Source: an uncultured Syntrophales bacterium (lineage in GTDB: Bacteria > Desulfobacterota > Syntrophia > Syntrophales > JADFWA01). From it: DNA of 56,835 nt. The DNA lies in contig CAZYTP010000005.1 in NCBI GenBank assembly GCA_964650385.1, positions 1 to 56,835 of the forward strand. Direction: 5' to 3'. Shown here in pieces: positions 20,867 to 54,486 of the stretch. Each line of letters starts with the position of its first letter. Positions within the stretch are counted from its first letter, which is position 1. A program made the position numbers and the translations under genes. The notes under the pieces were generated by a model. That model worked only from the letters and a program-made list of their open reading frames with translations. It made no database searches and was not told where the DNA came from.

Positions 20867-20957
20867 CTTTATCTCCTAATCCGGATCTACTTAAAGCAGA
20901 GAATCCAGCACGGTATTTTTAAACAACAATTCCCAAATGAATCTCCAAGTAACTGGA

Positions 20958-21035
20958 GTGAACTAACGTGACTAAAGTTGAAAATTCTTATCCATAACCT
21001 TAGCTCACTTTAGGCACTTCAAACTTTAGGCACTT
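20958..21035. repeat. Inverted (T/G)CACTTTAG tandem-array element, rpmI-rplT gap
   Basis: 20990-21035 is 45/46 identical to the reverse complement of 29992-30037. Confidence 0.8.
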
Positions 21036-21845: not shown

Positions 21846-21899
21846 AGTAAACTAAAGTTATAGATAAGCATTTTCAACTTTGGACACTTTAGTTCACTC
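21846..21899. repeat. Short copy of the CACTTTAG array element, thrS-infC gap
   Basis: Core AAAGTTATAGATAAGCATTTTCAACTTT is 25/28 identical (reverse complement) to the core at ~20974-21001. Confidence 0.65.
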
Positions 21900-28893: not shown

Positions 28894-28917
28894 GGTTTCA
28901 AGTTTCGCGTTTAAAGT

Positions 28918-29286
28918 TTAATACATCAGATCAAAAGCATTTTTAATAAGTTTTACCTCGCTGCCTTCAGGTAAAATTTTAACCGCCGCAACATCAAATC
29001 TTGCGCGGCAGTCCTGAAACTGTTTTTCCTTCAAATAATTCAATGCTATTTTTGAAATTTTCATTTTCTTGCTATGCCCAACTGACTCCTCCGGATAACC
29101 GTATTTAGCCGATCTCCTGCTTCTGACTTCTACAAATACTATGACATTTCTATCTATTGCAACAATATCAATCTCTCCAAAAACGCACCTGTAATTCCTT
29201 TGAACAATTCTGTACCCTTCTTTTTCCAGGTAATCAGCCGCAATATTTTCACCCAGTTTACCTGTCTGAATTTTAGTATTAGCCAT
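28918..29286 (-). CDS. YraN/UPF0102 family protein
   Basis: GKLGENIAADYL, RNYR, GEIDIV, VFVEVR, RFDV, IKNAF. Confidence 0.93.
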   Translation of the reverse strand: MANTKIQTGKLGENIAADYLEKEGYRIVQRNYRCVFGEIDIVAIDRNVIVFVEVRSRRSAKYGYPEESVGHSKKMKISKIALNYLKEKQFQDCRARFDVAAVKILPEGSEVKLIKNAFDLMY

Positions 29287-29383: not shown

Positions 29384-29988
29384 AAATAGAGGTATTCCTT
29401 TACCCCCTTGAAAGATCTTCTGTGAATTTTACAGCACCCATATTTCTTTATGGCCTCGCGATGTTCAAGAGTGCCATACCCCTTATTTTTAAGAAAATTA
29501 TACTGCGGGAATTGACGATGATATATCTCCATTATTTTATCTCTGGATACCTTGGCAATAATAGAAGCTGAAGCTATTGAAATACTCAGGGAATCTCCTT
29601 TGCGAATGGCCTGCTGCGGGATGGATACGTTAATATTATTGATACCATCAATTAGAAAATAATCGACGGCAAGGGAAAGATTTGTAACCGCCTCTTCCAT
29701 TGCCATTAATGTTGCCTGAAGAATATTTATGGAATCAATGACAGAGGATTCTACAACACCTAACCCAACTGAAAGGGCATCATTATTTATTGTTTCGTAT
29801 AGTCTTTCTCTCTTTTTGGGAGAAAGTTGTTTTGAATCACGAATTTCATCATTCTTATAGCTTGGGGGAAGAACTACGGCCGCTGCAACAACAGGACCTG
29901 ACAGAGGACCCCTCCCCGCCTCATCAACACCAGCCACAACCTGAAAGCCGCTACGATGAGCACTCAGTTCAAAACTGTACATAGTCAT
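29380..29988 (-). CDS. rnhB: Ribonuclease HII
   Basis: GVDEAGRGPL, DSKQL, KGD...ASIIAKVSRD, NKGYGT, HRRSF. Confidence 0.96.
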   Translation of the reverse strand: MTMYSFELSAHRSGFQVVAGVDEAGRGPLSGPVVAAAVVLPPSYKNDEIRDSKQLSPKKRERLYETINNDALSVGLGVVESSVIDSINILQATLMAMEEAVTNLSLAVDYFLIDGINNINVSIPQQAIRKGDSLSISIASASIIAKVSRDKIMEIYHRQFPQYNFLKNKGYGTLEHREAIKKYGCCKIHRRSFKGVKEYLYL

Positions 29989-29990
29989 TA

Positions 29991-30090
29991 AAAGTGCCTA
30001 AAGTTTGAAGTGCCTAAAGTGAGCTAAAGTTATGGATCACATTATTAACTTTAGGCACTTTAGTTCACTTTAGACATTTTAGCTCACTTT
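29991..30090. repeat. Largest inverted CACTTTAG tandem-array element, rplS-rnhB gap
   Basis: AAAGTGCCT/AAAGTGAGCT units, core, then AGGCACTTT/AGCTCACTTT units on the opposite strand; fills the whole gap. Confidence 0.85.
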
Positions 30091-34471: not shown

Positions 34472-34520
34472 GATGAATACCTGTTTAAAGTTTCGAGTTT
34501 AAAGTTCAAAGTTTAAAGTT
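34472..34520 (+). repeat. AAAGTTT-type heptamer array
   Basis: 34472-34513 is 41/42 identical to the reverse complement of 40352-40393; an inverted arm lies at 34673-34697. Confidence 0.8.
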
Positions 34521-34652
34521 GATGGCTTCGTAAAAAGTCAGCTTTTGTCACCCTGAATTTATTTCAGGGTCTCTAACTTGCTGAAATAATTAGATGCTGA
34601 AACAAGTTCAGCATGACAAATAACACATTTTGAGACTTTTTACGAGACTGTC
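34521..34652. mobile_element. 132-bp MITE carrying a type-B GTCA palindrome doublet
   Basis: GATGGCTTCGTAAAAAGTC...GACTTTTTACGAGACTGTC; flanks AAAGTT/ACAGTT; close copies at 51802 and 52483. Confidence 0.85.
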
Positions 34653-40236: not shown

Positions 40237-40351
40237 GATGGACTCGTAAAAAGTCCAAATCTTGTCACTCCCGCGCAGGCGGGAGTCTATAACACCTTAC
40301 AATAACTGGATTCCCGCCTACGCGGGAATGACAGAGAGGAACGAAACCGTC
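40237..40351. mobile_element. 115-bp MITE carrying a type-A GTCA palindrome doublet, right end partly deleted
   Basis: GATGGACTCGTAAAAAGTC, GTCACTCCCGCGCAGGCGGGAGTCTA...TGGATTCCCGCCTACGCGGGAATGAC, then ACGAAACCGTC. Confidence 0.75.
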
Positions 40352-40417
40352 AACTTTGAACTTTAAACTCGAAACTTTAAACAGGCATTCATCTATATAC
40401 CGGTGCCTCTCAGACAA

Positions 40418-45260: not shown

Positions 45261-45393
45261 AATGCATCCGTAAAAAGTCTGTCATTCCCGTGAAAACGGG
45301 AGTCCATAGAGGGCTAAGTGCTTGAAAAGACTGGATTCCCGTTTTCACGGGAATGACAAAATTGTGCATATTTCGACTTTTTACGAGACCATC
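45261..45393. mobile_element. 133-bp MITE carrying a type-A GTCA palindrome doublet
   Basis: CCGTAAAAAGTC, GTCATTCCCGTGAAAACGGGAGTCCA...TGGATTCCCGTTTTCACGGGAATGAC, GACTTTTTACGAGACCATC; flanks AAATTT/AAATTT. Confidence 0.85.
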
Positions 45394-45419: not shown

Positions 45420-45473
45420 CACGGACAAACAATACCGGATCAATGTCCGGCACATGGTTTGTCCATGCCACCC
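45420..45473 (-). repeat. 54-bp nested palindrome, copy 1
   Basis: 47/54 identical to 54433-54486 in opposite orientation. Confidence 0.75.
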
Positions 45474-45515: not shown

Positions 45516-45584
45516 AGTTAAAGCAATTTTATCCTTAATTTTAGATCACTTTAGTCACTTCAAACTTTAGCTCACTTCTACATT
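45516..45584. repeat. CACTTTAG array element, one-armed copy
   Basis: TTTAGATCACTTTAGTCACTTCAAACTTTAGCTCACTTC preceded by a degenerate core. Confidence 0.65.
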
Positions 45585-47592: not shown

Positions 47593-48887
47593 TGAAAGAT
47601 TCCACATCTCTTTTCGATAAGGCAAAAACCCTCATACCGGGCGGCGTGAACAGCCCGGTTCGGGCCTTCAGGGCCGTTGACTCAACCCCAATATTTATCA
47701 GCCACGCTTCCGGTTCCAGGATTTTCGACGTAGAAGGAAGGGAATACATAGACTATGTTTCATCATGGGGGCCGATGATACTTGGTCACAACCATCCTGA
47801 AGTCACCCGCGCAATAAAAGAAGCTGCCGACAAGGGGACAAGCTACGGTGCCCCAACAAATGCTGAAGTCGAAATGGCTGAACTGATCTCGAATGCCTTC
47901 CCATCGATCGAAATGGTCAGAATGGTCAACTCCGGGACAGAGGCAACGATGAGCACCATAAGGCTCGCCCGCGGCTTCACCAACAGGGAAAAGATCATAA
48001 AATTCGAGGGGTGTTATCACGGCCATGTAGATTCTCTTCTGGTCAAGGCCGGCTCCGGTGTTGCCACACTGGGTATTCCGGGAAGTCCCGGCATACCGAA
48101 AAAGCTGGCGGAGCTAACCATAACGCTCCCCTACAACAACATTGAAACTGTTAAATCCGCTGTTAGCATGCATGGAGAAGATATTGCCTGCGTAATACTC
48201 GAACCCGTTGCCGGAAACATGGGTGTTGTCCCGTCACACAGAGGATTTCTCGAAGGGCTGAGAGAGATAACCGAAAGCCACGGCATTCTCCTCATATTTG
48301 ATGAGGTAATTACGGGATTCAGACTAACCTATGGAGGCTTCCAGAATATCGCCGGTATCGAACCCGATCTTACCTGTCTCGGAAAGATAATCGGGGGCGG
48401 TCTTCCTGTCGGCGCCTTCGGGGGGAGAAAAGACGTTATGGAAACCCTCGCCCCGACAGGGCCCGTCTATCAGGCGGGAACCCTTTCCGGAAATCCCCTG
48501 GCTATGGCAGCCGGCATCACAACACTCAAGATCCTTAAGGAAAAAGTTGATTATGACGAAATCGACCGGAAAACGGACTTTCTATGCCGTGAAATGAAAA
48601 AACTCTTTAATCAAAATGAGATCCCCGTCAGCATAAACCGCGTCGGCTCAATGTTTACGATATTTTTTACGGATGACGAGGTCTTCGACTTTGAAACTGC
48701 CGGCAAAAGCGATACTGCACTTTTTGCACGATATTTCAGAGAAATGCTTGCAAACATGATAAACATTGCCCCCTCCCAGTTTGAGGCGTCCTTTCTCTCA
48801 TTCGCCCACACAGATGAAGACATCGAAACAACTCTTGGTGCCTGCGCCGCTGCACTGGAAAAAGTGAGTCTTGCCCATGAAAAATGA
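47592..48887 (+). CDS. hemL: Glutamate-1-semialdehyde 2,1-aminomutase
   Basis: PGGVNSPVRA, NSGTEA, YHGH, FDEVITGFR, GKIIGGGLP, YQAGTLSGNP. Confidence 0.97.
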   Translation: MKDSTSLFDKAKTLIPGGVNSPVRAFRAVDSTPIFISHASGSRIFDVEGREYIDYVSSWGPMILGHNHPEVTRAIKEAADKGTSYGAPTNAEVEMAELISNAFPSIEMVRMVNSGTEATMSTIRLARGFTNREKIIKFEGCYHGHVDSLLVKAGSGVATLGIPGSPGIPKKLAELTITLPYNNIETVKSAVSMHGEDIACVILEPVAGNMGVVPSHRGFLEGLREITESHGILLIFDEVITGFRLTYGGFQNIAGIEPDLTCLGKIIGGGLPVGAFGGRKDVMETLAPTGPVYQAGTLSGNPLAMAAGITTLKILKEKVDYDEIDRKTDFLCREMKKLFNQNEIPVSINRVGSMFTIFFTDDEVFDFETAGKSDTALFARYFREMLANMINIAPSQFEASFLSFAHTDEDIETTLGACAAALEKVSLAHEK

Positions 48888-50196
48888 ACTATCGTTCGAG
48901 TCTTTTTTGAACAAGACAGAAAAGATTGCAGTGGTAGGTCTCGGCTATGTTGGTCTGCCGCTTGCCGTCCATCTGTCCAGGCATTTTTCTGTTACAGGAT
49001 ATGACGTCAATTCCGACCGCATAGCTGAACTTAAGGCTGGCCATGATAGTACCAGAGAGGTAACCGATTCAGATTTACAATCATCAACTGTGGATTTCAC
49101 GTCCAGCCCCGAAGCGCTCTCTTCCTGCAGACTCATCATCGTGGCTGTTCCAACACCCATCGATGAAGCTAAATCACCGGATCTTACATATATCAGAAGC
49201 ACTTCAACCACTGTGGGCAAATATCTCTCACAAGGCTCCTGTGTGATCTTTGAATCGACGGTCTATCCGGGAGTAACGGAAGATATCTGTGTTCCTATCA
49301 TGGAAAAGGAATCCGGCTTAAAATTCGGTAAAGATTTCTCCGTCGGATACTCACCCGAAAGGATTAATCCGGGTGACAAGGTCCATACGTTAGAGACGAC
49401 TATCAAAATTGTCTCCGCATCCGATATAAAAACCCTCGACTTGCTCACACAGATTTACGGCAGGGTCGTTAATGCCGGGATTCATCGGGTTTCTTCTATC
49501 AAAGTAGCTGAGGCGGCCAAGGTCATTGAAAATACGCAAAGAGACATCAATATTGCCCTCATAAATGAGCTTTCCATCATCTTCAACAAGATGGGAATCG
49601 ACACTCTTGAAGTCCTGGAAGCGGCAGGCACCAAGTGGAATTTTCTGCCATTTCGGCCAGGCCTTGTAGGCGGTCACTGTATCGGGGTGGATCCCTACTA
49701 TTTAACCTTCAAGGCGGAGTCATTAGGCTACCATCCGCAGGTAATTCTGGCCGGACGCCGTATCAACGACGGGATGGGGAAATACATAGCCGGGCAAACC
49801 ATCAAGATGCTCATCGCCGCAGATAAGCATGTCAGAAATGCAAAGGTGGCAGTACTCGGGCTGACCTTCAAGGAGAATGTCCCCGATTTACGCAATACAA
49901 AGGTGGCAGACATCATCAATGAATTGAAAGATTACGGGAGCAGCGTTATTATCCATGATCCCCACGCCAGTGCTGAAGAAGCCTATCACCAATACGGCCT
50001 GAAACTACAGCCGCTCAATCAAATTAGAGGGGTTGATGCGGTGATTCTGGCGGTTGCACACCGGGAGTATCAGGAACTCGGCCTCCGAAAGATCGCTGCG
50101 TTATGCTCCGACGGAGATTCACCTGTTGTGGATGTTAAGGGTATGTTCAGCCACGAAGAAGCAAAGAAACTCAATATAAATTACTGGAGATTGTGA
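48877..50196 (+). CDS. Nucleotide-sugar dehydrogenase (TviB/WbpO-like)
   Basis: GLGYVGLP, ESTVYPG, SPERINPG, GGHCIGVDPYYL, FKENVPDLRN. Confidence 0.92.
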   Translation: MKNELSFESFLNKTEKIAVVGLGYVGLPLAVHLSRHFSVTGYDVNSDRIAELKAGHDSTREVTDSDLQSSTVDFTSSPEALSSCRLIIVAVPTPIDEAKSPDLTYIRSTSTTVGKYLSQGSCVIFESTVYPGVTEDICVPIMEKESGLKFGKDFSVGYSPERINPGDKVHTLETTIKIVSASDIKTLDLLTQIYGRVVNAGIHRVSSIKVAEAAKVIENTQRDINIALINELSIIFNKMGIDTLEVLEAAGTKWNFLPFRPGLVGGHCIGVDPYYLTFKAESLGYHPQVILAGRRINDGMGKYIAGQTIKMLIAADKHVRNAKVAVLGLTFKENVPDLRNTKVADIINELKDYGSSVIIHDPHASAEEAYHQYGLKLQPLNQIRGVDAVILAVAHREYQELGLRKIAALCSDGDSPVVDVKGMFSHEEAKKLNINYWRL

Positions 50197-50233
50197 AAAA
50201 TGTGCCCTTTCTGTCATTCCCGCGTTTCCTTCT

Positions 50234-50642
50234 GTCATTCCCGCGAAGGCGGGAATCCAGACACCATCCCCACGCAAGCGGGGAAACATGAAGTGAAATA
50301 ATGTAGCGTGACGTGCGTTAATGAAACAATATTACATTTATATTCTTGCAAGCAGAAAAAACGGGACGTTGTATGTCGGTGTGACGAGTGATTTACTCAA
50401 AAGGATTTATGCGCACAAACAAAATCTCATAGATGGATTCACAAAAAAATATAATGTCCATACTCTTGTGTATTGTGAGGTATATAACGACATACGAAAG
50501 CGATTCTAAGAGAAAAGCAGATAAAGAAATGGAATAGGAGATGGAAGCTAAGGCTTATTGAAGAAATGAATTCTGAATGGAGGGATTTATATGACGAAAT
50601 AGTTTAAACATATTTCTGGATTCCCGCCTTCGCGGGAATGAC
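50234..50642. mobile_element. GIY-YIG cassette bounded by perfect 26-nt inverted GTCA palindromes
   Basis: GTCATTCCCGCGAAGGCGGGAATCCA (50234-50259) and its exact reverse complement (50617-50642). Confidence 0.8.
50321..50607 (+). pseudogene. Stand-alone GIY-YIG nuclease with a 1-nt frameshift near 50497
   Basis: YYIYILASRKNGTLYVGVT...R...H...GFTKKY in the first frame; AILREKQIKKWNRRWKLRLIEEMNSEWRDLYDEIV continues in another frame to TAA 50607. Confidence 0.88.
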
Positions 50643-50677
50643 CATTTAGAATATTTATGGAAACTTGTAAGGATTCT

Positions 50678-51703
50678 ATGAGAAAAATCTTAGTCACAGG
50701 TGCAGCCGGCTTTATCGGGTTCCATTTAGCTAAAAGGCTATTAAATAGTGGCAATACCGTCGTCGGCATAGACAACCTGAACAATTACTATGATGTCAAC
50801 CTGAAAAAAGCACGTCTTGCCATTCTCGAAAACTACAAGACCTTTAATTTCACCCAAATGGATATCGCCAACCGGGAAGACATGGAAAGACTTTTCCATA
50901 CAGATTCACCAGACTATATTGTCCACTTAGCCGCCCAAGTAGGAGTACGTTATTCTCTTGAGAATCCCCACGCATATATCAACAGCAATCTCGTCGGTTT
51001 CACAAATATCCTTGAAGGCTGCAGGCACAATAAAGTTAAACATCTCGTTTTTGCCTCGTCAAGTTCCGTCTACGGTGCAAACACCAGGGTGCCCTTCTCG
51101 ATTCATCATAATGTTGATCACCCAATCAGCCTCTATGCCGCAACGAAAAAGGCAAATGAACTGATGGCACATGTTTACGCGCATCTTTACAATATCCCCT
51201 GCACGGGACTCCGATTCTTTACCGTATACGGCCCTTGGGGTAGACCCGACATGGCCTATTTCCTCTTTACGGATGCCATCCTGCGGGGAAAGCCGATCGA
51301 CGTATTCAACCATGGTAAGATGAAAAGGGACTTTACATACATAGACGATATTATAGAAGGTGTTGTCAGAATAATTGACAATATCCCGCAGGCGGATCCC
51401 AGCTGGAGCAGAGATGATCCTGACCCCGGTACAAGCTTTGCCCCTTATAAAATCTATAACATAGGCAACAACAACCCCATACAATTGATGAAATTTATCA
51501 ACCTGCTGGAAGAGTGCCTCGGTGAAACGGCAAAAAAAAACTTTCTTCCCCTGCAACCCGGAGATGTGCCGGCAACTTATGCCGACGTGGACGATTTAAT
51601 GAAAGACGTGGGCTTTAAACCGAAGACCCCGCTAAGAGAAGGCATCAGAAAATTTGTGGAGTGGTATAAGAAATATTATTTTACTCCCCAAAACAGACAT
51701 TGA
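50678..51703 (+). CDS. NAD-dependent epimerase (UDP-glucuronate 4-epimerase-like)
   Basis: [38 protein letters not shown]. Confidence 0.93.
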
Positions 51704-51716
51704 CCCTTCGAACACA

Positions 51717-51781
51717 GTAGGATAGGCGTCCCGCCTGTCCATAATGGTGAATCGCTTAGACAGCCGAGACGGCTGTCCTAC
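51717..51781. repeat. GTAG-type REP doublet (REPIN-like)
   Basis: GTAGGATAGGCGTCCCGCCTGTC...GACAGCCGAGACGGCTGTCCTAC. Confidence 0.7.
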
Positions 51782-51801
51782 GGGATGGGGAGGACAGTCT
51801 T

Positions 51802-51932
51802 GACAGTCTCGTAAAAAGTCTTTTTTTGTCACCCTGAATTTATTTCAGGGTCTCTAACTTGCTGAAATAATAGATGCTGAAACAAGTTCAGCATGACAAA
51901 TGACACATTTTGAGACTTTTTACGAGTGCATC
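51802..51932. mobile_element. 131-bp MITE carrying a type-B GTCA palindrome doublet
   Basis: Close copy of 34521-34652; flanks AGTCTT/AATCTT. Confidence 0.85.
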
Positions 51933-52482: not shown

Positions 52483-52614
52483 GAGGCACTCGTAAAAAGT
52501 CAGCTTTTGTCACCCTGAATTTATTTCAGGGTCTCTAACTTATTGAACTGTTTAGATGCTGAAACAAGTTCAGCATGACAAATGTTGCAGTTTATGACTT
52601 TTTACGAGACTGTC
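52483..52614. mobile_element. 132-bp MITE carrying a type-B GTCA palindrome doublet
   Basis: GAGGCACTCGTAAAAAGTC...GACTTTTTACGAGACTGTC; flanks ATATTT/ATATTT. Confidence 0.85.
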
Positions 52615-52690: not shown

Positions 52691-52975
52691 GTGATTAATG
52701 TGGCCGTGGTAAAAAAGATTGGAAGTAGTGGACAAATTTCCTTAGGGAAAGAATATGCAGGCCGGGACGTCGTTATAGAACAGATAAGTGACGGAGTTTG
52801 GATCATAAAAACAGGTCAGTTTATGCCCCATGATGAAAGATGGCTGCACCATCCTGAGGTTTCCAGCGCTCTTGATAAGGCTATCGACTGGGCTGAACAA
52901 AACCCACCCGGGGAAACCAACCTAAATGATCTTGAGAAACAACTTGAAAATGCCCAAAACAGATCCGACTCTTAA
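52691..52975 (+). CDS. Putative antitoxin with AbrB/MazE-like N-terminus
   Basis: KKIGSSGQISLGKEY...VVIE...WIIK swapped-hairpin-like pattern; acidic C-terminus; overlaps the next ORF. Confidence 0.6.
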   Translation: MINVAVVKKIGSSGQISLGKEYAGRDVVIEQISDGVWIIKTGQFMPHDERWLHHPEVSSALDKAIDWAEQNPPGETNLNDLEKQLENAQNRSDS

Positions 52976-53267
52976 ATTAGATTTAAATAATCCAGTCTTT
53001 CAAAAACAGTTATTTAATCTACCACAAAAAGATCAGCGAAGCGTCTTTAACACCTTGCGCAGGGTGTTAAAGATGGATTGGAACCAGATTTACCAGGATC
53101 GTGGTCTTAAATGGGAGATAATACATTCACGTTCAGGTCCCCATGGCAAGCGGCTCTACAGCTTGCGAACAGGCAAGGGTTTTAGGGCAGTAGCTTGCCG
53201 GGATGGACAATGGATGAGATTGTTGTCTTTACATCCAGATCATGATTCTGCCTACCTTTCATCTTGA
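52950..53267 (+). CDS. Putative RelE/ParE-like toxin
   Basis: Basic 105 aa; FQKQLFNL helix, LYSLR.GKGFRAV strands, C-terminal HPDHDSAY. Confidence 0.55.
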   Translation: MPKTDPTLKLDLNNPVFQKQLFNLPQKDQRSVFNTLRRVLKMDWNQIYQDRGLKWEIIHSRSGPHGKRLYSLRTGKGFRAVACRDGQWMRLLSLHPDHDSAYLSS

Positions 53268-54432: not shown

Positions 54433-54486
54433 GGGCGGAATGGACAAACCATGTAACGGACTTTGATCCGGTATCGTTTGACCGTG
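54433..54486 (+). repeat. 54-bp nested palindrome, copy 2
   Basis: GGGCGGAATGGACAAACCATGTAACGGACTTTGATCCGGTATCGTTTGACCGTG. Confidence 0.7.

Follow-up and report, generated by a model that had tools for sequence, protein, structure and literature searches.

The Ssn family was defined by Chenal et al. (2025, PMC11893778) as those members of cd10448 that consist of a single GIY-YIG domain and are encoded between NTS/SRM hairpins. According to the available text of that paper, SsnA binds and cuts single-stranded DNA (ssDNA) only, a few bases 5′ of the hairpin, and requires Y6, Y17 and E64 (E64A abolishes cutting) in the protein and, in the DNA, the GTC tag together with the C that follows the stem. 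Hairpin-specific ssDNA nicking in vitro is described there for four homologues (SsnA and three others), deletion of ssnA in Neisseria meningitidis gave 5-fold more transformation for NTS-bearing DNA, and the NTS-ssnA-NTS arrangement was likened, as a hypothesis, to a mobile element and to REP-associated transposases. In the literature on cd10448 and Ssn within our scope, outside which most subscription papers lie, we found no report of movement driven by Ssn, of NTS doublets borne on MITEs or of hairpin classes specific to clades.

CGTC-1 REPs, identical with dRS3, were described with a CGTC or TGTC tag, an 8-bp stem, a 4-nt loop and a CCA tail, and they form head-to-head dimers, some of which were reported within larger palindromes; the accessible portion of that study reported no dedicated enzyme for them (Di Nocera et al. 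2013, PMC3733652). RAYT REPtrons and REPINs likewise combine a small gene between tagged hairpins with gene-less doublets and an enzyme clade matched to the repeat class. IS-derived MITEs, such as Chunjie of Geobacter uraniireducens, are characterized in the accessible part of the source by a length of 130-270 bp, terminal inverted repeats, a target duplication, no coding capacity and a partner IS in relatives (PMC10969869).

Here, we have analyzed a stretch of 56,835 nucleotides (the window) from the genome of an uncultured Syntrophales bacterium (assembly GCA_964650385.1, contig CAZYTP010000005.1; 2.77 Mb in 173 contigs, hereafter G000), in which an earlier sequence-only reading had noticed a GIY-YIG gene between inverted palindromes. 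We are fairly confident that this is a frameshifted SsnA-like gene between inward-facing NTS hairpins in a sugar-synthesis operon, and that the gene-less hairpin pairs of this genome lie in MITEs, with a DDE transposase, and not the nuclease, as the likely agent of their spread.

The cassette and its frameshifted gene

The cassette and its neighbors (48,871-51,703 of the window) contain the following features:

48871..50196, + strand: nucleotide-sugar dehydrogenase, the upstream host gene (TIGR03026 over cut-off)
50197..50212, + strand: left spacer resembling the inner linker of this genome's MITEs, without terminal repeat; putative remnant
50213..50224, + strand: partial head-to-tail copy GTCATTCCCGCG, the first 12 bases of the hairpin
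50233..50261, + strand: left hairpin of the NTS/SRM type, with GTC tag, stem of 8 bp, loop of 4 nt and CCA tail; NTS consensus with 1 mismatch
50265..50286, + strand: degenerate untagged hairpin, with better pairing in the relative G002
50321..50607, + strand: small GIY-YIG gene of the Ssn family, frameshifted (intact ortholog 95 codons)
50495..50499, + strand: one base absent relative to the intact G002 ortholog, leaving the E65 codon (50512-50514) and the C-terminal third out of frame
50615..50643, - strand: right NTS hairpin, inverted; NTS consensus with 1 mismatch, first base G
50643..50660, - strand: right spacer, similar to the linker of a different MITE shell (GAGACCTTTG-type ends); putative remnant
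50657..51703, + strand: NAD-dependent epimerase, the downstream host gene (PF01370; likely start ATG 50678)

The inverted arms (50234-50261 and 50615-50642, spaced by 353 nt) are perfect, as had been noticed earlier, with complementarity at 28 of 28 rather than 26 of 26 positions. The partial copy at 50213 and the degenerate one placed near 50263 by the sequence-only reading were both found, and the matches to TIGR03026 and PF01370 bear out its placement of the cassette between a nucleotide-sugar dehydrogenase and an epimerase. The hairpin pattern has six matches in the window (40264, 40309, 45281, 45334, 50234 and 50619) and none in 100 shuffles. The hairpins retain the GTC tag and also the C that follows the stem, and the strict SRM pattern matches the left arm only, because the first base of the right hairpin is G. 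The window hairpin also displays the tag, stem, loop, CCA tail and ATTCCC-N8-GGGAAT core of CGTC-1/dRS3. A search of 50150-50720 for promoters and terminators returned none above chance, and the cassette has neither terminal repeats of its own nor a target duplication relative to the empty sites of two relatives (G001 and G005). The linker motif seen at the left spacer comes after a terminal repeat in 15 of its 16 matches, and 33 nt at the left edge of the G002 cassette are identical to the end of a G000 MITE that belongs to the TTTCG class.

The open reading frame at 50321-50509 ends after 62 aa, and the C-terminal 35 aa (AILREKQIK...) lie in another frame at 50500-50607; PF01541 matches the first half of the gene (E 3.7e-11). 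The missing base that the sequence-only reading had suspected near 50497 is indeed absent relative to the G002 ortholog, and the helix with the catalytic Glu (REKQIK) is lost as it had described; the catalytic residues of the window copy do not all stand in one reading frame. Given the intact ortholog at 93% nucleotide identity, one might suppose an assembly error in an intact gene, which we consider extremely improbable since the same gap-free allele is found in contigs of five runs. The cassette is covered from end to end, with neither a difference nor a gap, by contigs of two runs not flagged as source (X6 and X7) and of two possible source runs (X1 and X2), and one 163-nt contig of the RNA run X15 bridges the frameshift, although these runs may belong to one campaign and contigs lose rare variants, which would leave room for an intact minority allele. 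The contigs of X8 do not bridge the site, and the few RNA contigs are silent on transcription level and strand. Joints that skip the gene in some run contigs were considered as an excised form of the cassette and rejected, as they derive from other doublets.

Apart from the lost base, the window gene and the G002 ortholog (93% identical, compared with 90% for the dehydrogenase) differ by 11 synonymous and 6 non-synonymous codons, and the base loss therefore looks recent. Considering that E65 is out of frame and that E64A abolishes cutting by SsnA, the window copy is very likely an inactive pseudogene of the Ssn family.

Kinship with Ssn and the pairing of nucleases with hairpins

The N. gonorrhoeae SsnA (94 aa), whose gene contains an exact match to the published ssnA_F primer, was used in place of the N. 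meningitidis protein. It is the best match of the G002 ortholog in the plasmid collection (60.2% identity over 98%, E 1e-31), and the two halves of the window gene are 58% and 69% identical to it. Residues Y6, Y17 and E64 of SsnA align with Y7, Y18 and E65 of the ortholog, which has PF01541 as its sole domain and, with 95 aa, is below the Ssn size limit of 150 aa. Ssn membership is defined by E<1e-10 over >75% of SsnA (in the strict form with at least 60% identity) and by an NTS (up to 1 mismatch) or SRM on both sides; the similarity found lies within these bounds, including the strict one, and such hairpins stand on both sides. In a quick tree without other GIY-YIG families as outgroup, the ortholog and Neisseria SsnA fall into one 120-row group (SH-aLRT 94). 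The PDB search gave only a weak match to the UPF0213 structure 1zg2, and phage records contained no Ssn at E 1e-10. A 2.17-Mb N. gonorrhoeae record filed as a plasmid (NZ_CP119140.1, L134) is chromosome-like and carries an unannotated ssnA.

Judged by its sequence, the cassette is a broken copy of the published Ssn/NTS system, with which it shares a single-domain GIY-YIG protein of about 95 aa, the NTS-gene-NTS layout, the catalytic Y/Y/E residues, repeat copies throughout the genome and, save for its first base, the NTS hairpin itself (as far as the available text of PMC11893778 allows comparison). By analogy with SsnA, the product of an intact gene would nick ssDNA just 5′ of the GTC tag. 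The locus differs from the described cases in that its own copy is frameshifted, its host is environmental with about 50 repeat copies, and most doublets lie in IS-derived MITE shells. The sequence-only reading had proposed a nuclease-driven cassette whose mechanism it did not know to be established; the pairing of gene and hairpins and the hairpin nicking in vitro turn out to be published, whereas Ssn-driven movement was not found. Its parallel with RAYT REPtrons, but with another nuclease fold, is also apt: the window gene is a GIY-YIG hydrolase, for which no strand transfer is known, and not an HUH tyrosine transposase; only the GIY-YIG fold was detected, without HUH or Y1, and the tag is T/G-GTC instead of GTAG. 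The same parallel had already been drawn in the available text of Chenal et al. (PMC11893778).

Among the candidate proteins of the homologue search, 5967 of 5985 had E<=1e-10. We examined 113 loci (80 + 30 + 3 own or ortholog), and the 250-nt flanks were complete at 105 of them. Two GTC hairpins facing inward were present at 68 of these 105 loci and at none of 89 control windows placed 1 kb away; the corresponding numbers were 96/105 and 9/89 for any hairpin, 31/105 and 0/89 for SRM on both sides, and 73/105 and 1/89 for SRM anywhere. Flanking palindromes are thus common among the homologues, contrary to the refuting condition set by the sequence-only reading, and together with the match between clades and classes described below, these counts confirm its pairing of nuclease and hairpins. 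Partial tandem copies precede 38 of the 159 NTS-class hairpins that flank homologous Ssn loci, and are also visible in the oligos of Chenal et al. 2025, as given in the accessible text (PMC11893778).

G000 has three intact Ssn paralogs (L001:1430-1729, L002:1558-1845 and L003:1449-1790), which go with NTS-type hairpins on C73, GTCATTGCGAG-type hairpins on C17 and GTCATCCTGAA-type hairpins on C75; two of the three are therefore associated with classes outside the SRM pattern, in contrast to the described Ssn. The cassettes on C73 and C17 each abut one MITE end on the right side, and the intact NTS-type paralog on C73 may render the window copy redundant. For the covariation of protein and repeat, 160 rows were used, with duplicates merged and L034, L385 and L398 left out as broken or cut: 114 were of the NTS class, 23 TTGC, 8 CTGA, 6 TTTCG, 7 without hairpin and 2 mixed. 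On a quick tree, the class labels required 12 changes compared with a mean of 44.3 after shuffling (0 of 200 as low), a difference to be read with the facts that the alignment has 95 columns, labels were assigned post hoc, queries were picked by class and kin share labels. The supports of the clade groups were 94, 93, 91 and 96, and the residues after REKQxK vary by class (KWNR, xGSR, GWLR and KWRRE). The C75 protein of G000 lies outside the CTGA group, and no nuclease of the clade matching the TTTCG class was found in G000, which has 30 TTTCG-class hairpins. Because one genome holds several classes, the pattern does not reflect host kinship; it is a correlation and falls short of showing specificity. 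These alignments indicate that four hairpin classes track four nuclease clades across the 160 loci, a modest addition to what is known, and the protein-repeat covariation that the sequence-only reading had proposed to look for is accordingly present.

Three of the four classes fall outside the published search pattern, and several nuclease-hairpin pairs coexist in one genome. The match of class and clade points to natural Ssn enzymes with differing predicted ssDNA specificities and to a candidate specificity segment, which could be useful for ssDNA tools. A bolder and tentative reading is that Ssn proteins are the missing dedicated enzymes of the whole CGTC-REP superfamily (NTS; TTGCGAG..GCAATC; CTGA..GAATCT; TTTCGA..GAAATC, each with its own clade), which in this bacterial order would work in two tiers: Ssn places hairpin doublets in IS shells, and DDE transposases amplify them afterwards. 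Under that reading, the hairpin class would be recognized by the residues that directly follow REKQxK.

The same site in related genomes

Among the 40 relatives searched, the junction was readable in four (G001, G002, G005 and G017); contigs of G003, G004 and G006 stop short of it, and G015 and G036 lay outside the comparison. The cassette occupies the same site, with an intact 95-aa gene at L005:1808-2095, in G002 of the same genus, and the site is empty in G001 (same genus) and G005 (same family), where the host genes are 5-7 nt apart; in G017 they are about 105 nt apart and no hairpin was seen. This site is shared with the G002 ortholog alone among 160 distinct Ssn loci, and in the order the family has a patchy occurrence, in 55 of 151 genomes, so that the distribution and the near-unique sites are consistent with a mobile cassette. 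Compared with the window gene, the G002 epimerase (L005:598-1758) is longer by an in-frame insertion of some 38 codons, possibly an intragenic repeat.

A benefit to the host has also been weighed, in which Ssn trims incoming or recombining hairpin-bearing ssDNA and thereby guards or diversifies surface-sugar genes, mobility being incidental. The location of the cassette in a polysaccharide operon agrees with this, as do the 11 synonymous versus 6 non-synonymous codons, which suggest that the gene was conserved until recently, and the 5-fold effect in N. meningitidis (accessible text of PMC11893778). Such ssDNA restriction nevertheless seems improbable to us, considering that only about 50 NTS copies occur in 2.77 Mb and that close relatives have lost the gene or carry a broken copy.

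Gene-less doublets in MITE shells

The gene-less doublets reported by the sequence-only reading at 40264 and 45281 are present; it had missed a second, outer inverted repeat (GAY-N4-TCGTAAAAAGTC) around them. The window contains the following MITEs and doublets (unstranded):

45261..45393: MITE bounded by terminal inverted repeats of the IS type and by the 6-bp duplication AAATTT, holding the NTS doublet 45280-45358
40237..40333: NTS doublet at 40263-40333, preceded by a single terminal repeat of the IS type at 40237-40256
34521..34652: same MITE shell, CCTGAA-type GTCA doublet, duplication 5/6
51802..51932: same MITE shell, CCTGAA-type doublet, duplication 5/6
52483..52614: same MITE shell, CCTGAA-type doublet, exact duplication ATATTT

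For the doublet at 40264, the partner end of the terminal repeat was not found. G000 has 62 elements of this kind, short (<500 bp) and non-coding, with terminal inverted repeats; 25 have an exact 6-bp target duplication (shuffle mean 1.8, maximum 7 in 2000) and 42 a duplication of at least 5/6 (shuffle mean 10.5, maximum 21). NTS doublets lie within 14 of the 62, and 7 of these 14 have exact duplications. By description, the elements resemble IS-derived MITEs such as Chunjie (accessible part of PMC10969869), the difference being that their cargo consists of Ssn-type hairpin doublets of several classes. The target duplications of the family are AANNTT-like, and its copies insert beside each other's ends (C8, C70, C96 and C130).

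The shell carries NTS, CTGAA, TTTCG, TTGCG or no GTCA hairpin in G000, and with four classes or none as cargo, it appears to be independent of the hairpin: one shell, many cargoes. In G020, shells with clear 6-bp duplications hold mostly other cargo, and in metagenomes, where some loci overlap, 66 of 95 short shell elements were without GTCA cargo and 37 of 95 had exact duplications. The published SRM pattern has 50 matches in G000 versus 6-11 in 5 shuffles, and NTS at up to 3 mismatches has 39 versus 0. With exact patterns, there are 26 junctions of end and hairpin for 47 NTS copies, about half; with a loose motif (background 4.8%), which also scored the left arm of the window cassette, at most 38 of 53 copies are joined to this end. 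Other NTS copies of G000 sit behind other IS-like ends, and GTCA hairpins in general occur behind at least three of these (GAGGCTGTCCGAAAA, GAGACTGTGTCGCAAT and GAGAGCTTTGCATAAT/GAGACCTTTG; C2, C8, C40, C74, C83, C105 and others). Repeats are also present in genomes in which no Ssn was found, possibly through assembly loss in MAGs, namely G003 (94% complete; 35 NTS, 31 joined to the IS end of the shell), G034 (96%) and G009.

A partner of the shell is seen in one metagenome contig, where a shell end lies 130 nt before a 574-aa DDE transposase (PF05598, PF01609, PF13751) with IS1182 as best NCBIfam match, below cut-off (166 vs 270 bits). Among 25 homologue loci of this protein, the end was found on both sides at 8, on one side at 10 and on neither at 7, six of which are distant (at most 35% identical); at two loci, L344 and L345, the 6-bp duplication is exact. 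Within the genus of the window bacterium, a broken copy flanked by both ends is present in G001 and a fragment in G002. Searches with PF01609, PF05598, NF033593 and the L218 protein revealed no assembled partner transposase in G000, and viral contigs held no complete IS among 40 loci. Ends of the ISNCY/ISDol1 type were rejected, with 0 of 25 NF033593 loci showing convincing ends, leaving an IS1182-like partner.

An HUH transposase of the IS200/RAYT type acting in trans on the GTCA repeats could be imagined from the two Y1_Tnp genes of the genome. We know of no HUH transposase that makes a target duplication, and no GTCA hairpin head lies within 1.5 kb of either gene, which renders this very improbable, even though CGTC repeats may use other transposases according to the accessible portion of Di Nocera et al. 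(2013, PMC3733652).

Since IS-type ends and 6-bp duplications enclose them, the doublets of the 45281/40264 type most likely last moved as MITE cargo, and gene-less hairpin pairs would spread in this way by means of the DDE transposase. NTS-type repeats could hence multiply without a dedicated transposase. The proposal of the sequence-only reading that the gene mobilises these doublets finds no support here: the copy is broken, and the doublets carry DDE-type IS ends and target duplications. More generally, Ssn may be a REP-like mobiliser that nicks hairpin ssDNA and leaves completion to host repair, making both cassettes and doublets, with the IS shells as landing places or late hitch-hikers. 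We regard this as rather unlikely, because target duplications lie outside the IS ends and not at the hairpins, this copy is broken and no demonstration of Ssn-driven movement appeared in the literature search; to our knowledge, GIY-YIG enzymes hydrolyse, with no known strand-transfer step. It would nonetheless agree with the paired inward hairpins of 68 among the 105 homologues, with a patchy cassette at many sites whose hairpin class follows the protein clade, and with shell-free repeats in other families. Junctions with the shell number 0 of 31 NTS copies in G022, 1 of 50 in G024 and 0 of 26 in G035, and in 20 sampled regions of other families, a sample biased to look-alikes of cassette flanks, the hairpins stood singly, in clusters or as doublets without a clear shell. 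The IS end of the shell touches only 8 of 160 Ssn cassettes. Ssn was found in 6 of 7 shell-free repeat-rich genomes versus 4 of 10 shell-rich ones, a difference that is not significant (Fisher p 0.13) in incomplete genomes, and the same hypothesis was raised in the available text of PMC11893778.

For the doublets named above, mobilisation by Ssn is less likely than DDE transposition, and a role of Ssn in creating or moving hairpins is possible. Carriage in MITEs accounts for the spread of the doublets and not for their first entry, and one shell with several hairpin classes may need a hairpin-specific enzyme. Nicking by Ssn followed by host repair would be the likeliest candidate both for entry into shells and for cassette movement, and it fits the partial tandem copies described above. 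Arrival of the window cassette was probably either by such nicking and repair or within a MITE shell that has since decayed.

Several other repeats were noticed in the window. Small hairpins of yet another type (GTAGGATAGGCGTCCCGCCTGTC ... GACGGCTGTCCTAC) form a doublet at 51721-51785, just past the epimerase and beside a MITE. Two inverted 54-nt repeats (45420-45473 and 54433-54486), 9 kb apart and 87% complementary, are related to sequence next to a MITE in G003 (L427). Dispersed repeats of short tandem units (CTAAAGT and TTTAAAG types), direct and inverted, occur at 20956-21035, 21846-21899, 28895-28921 and 29972-30088, with more at 34472-34520, 40345-40393 and 45525-45570. At 52691-53267, two small overlapping open reading frames encode 94 and 113 aa, the first with a weak match to DUF2080, and their layout suggests a toxin-antitoxin pair.
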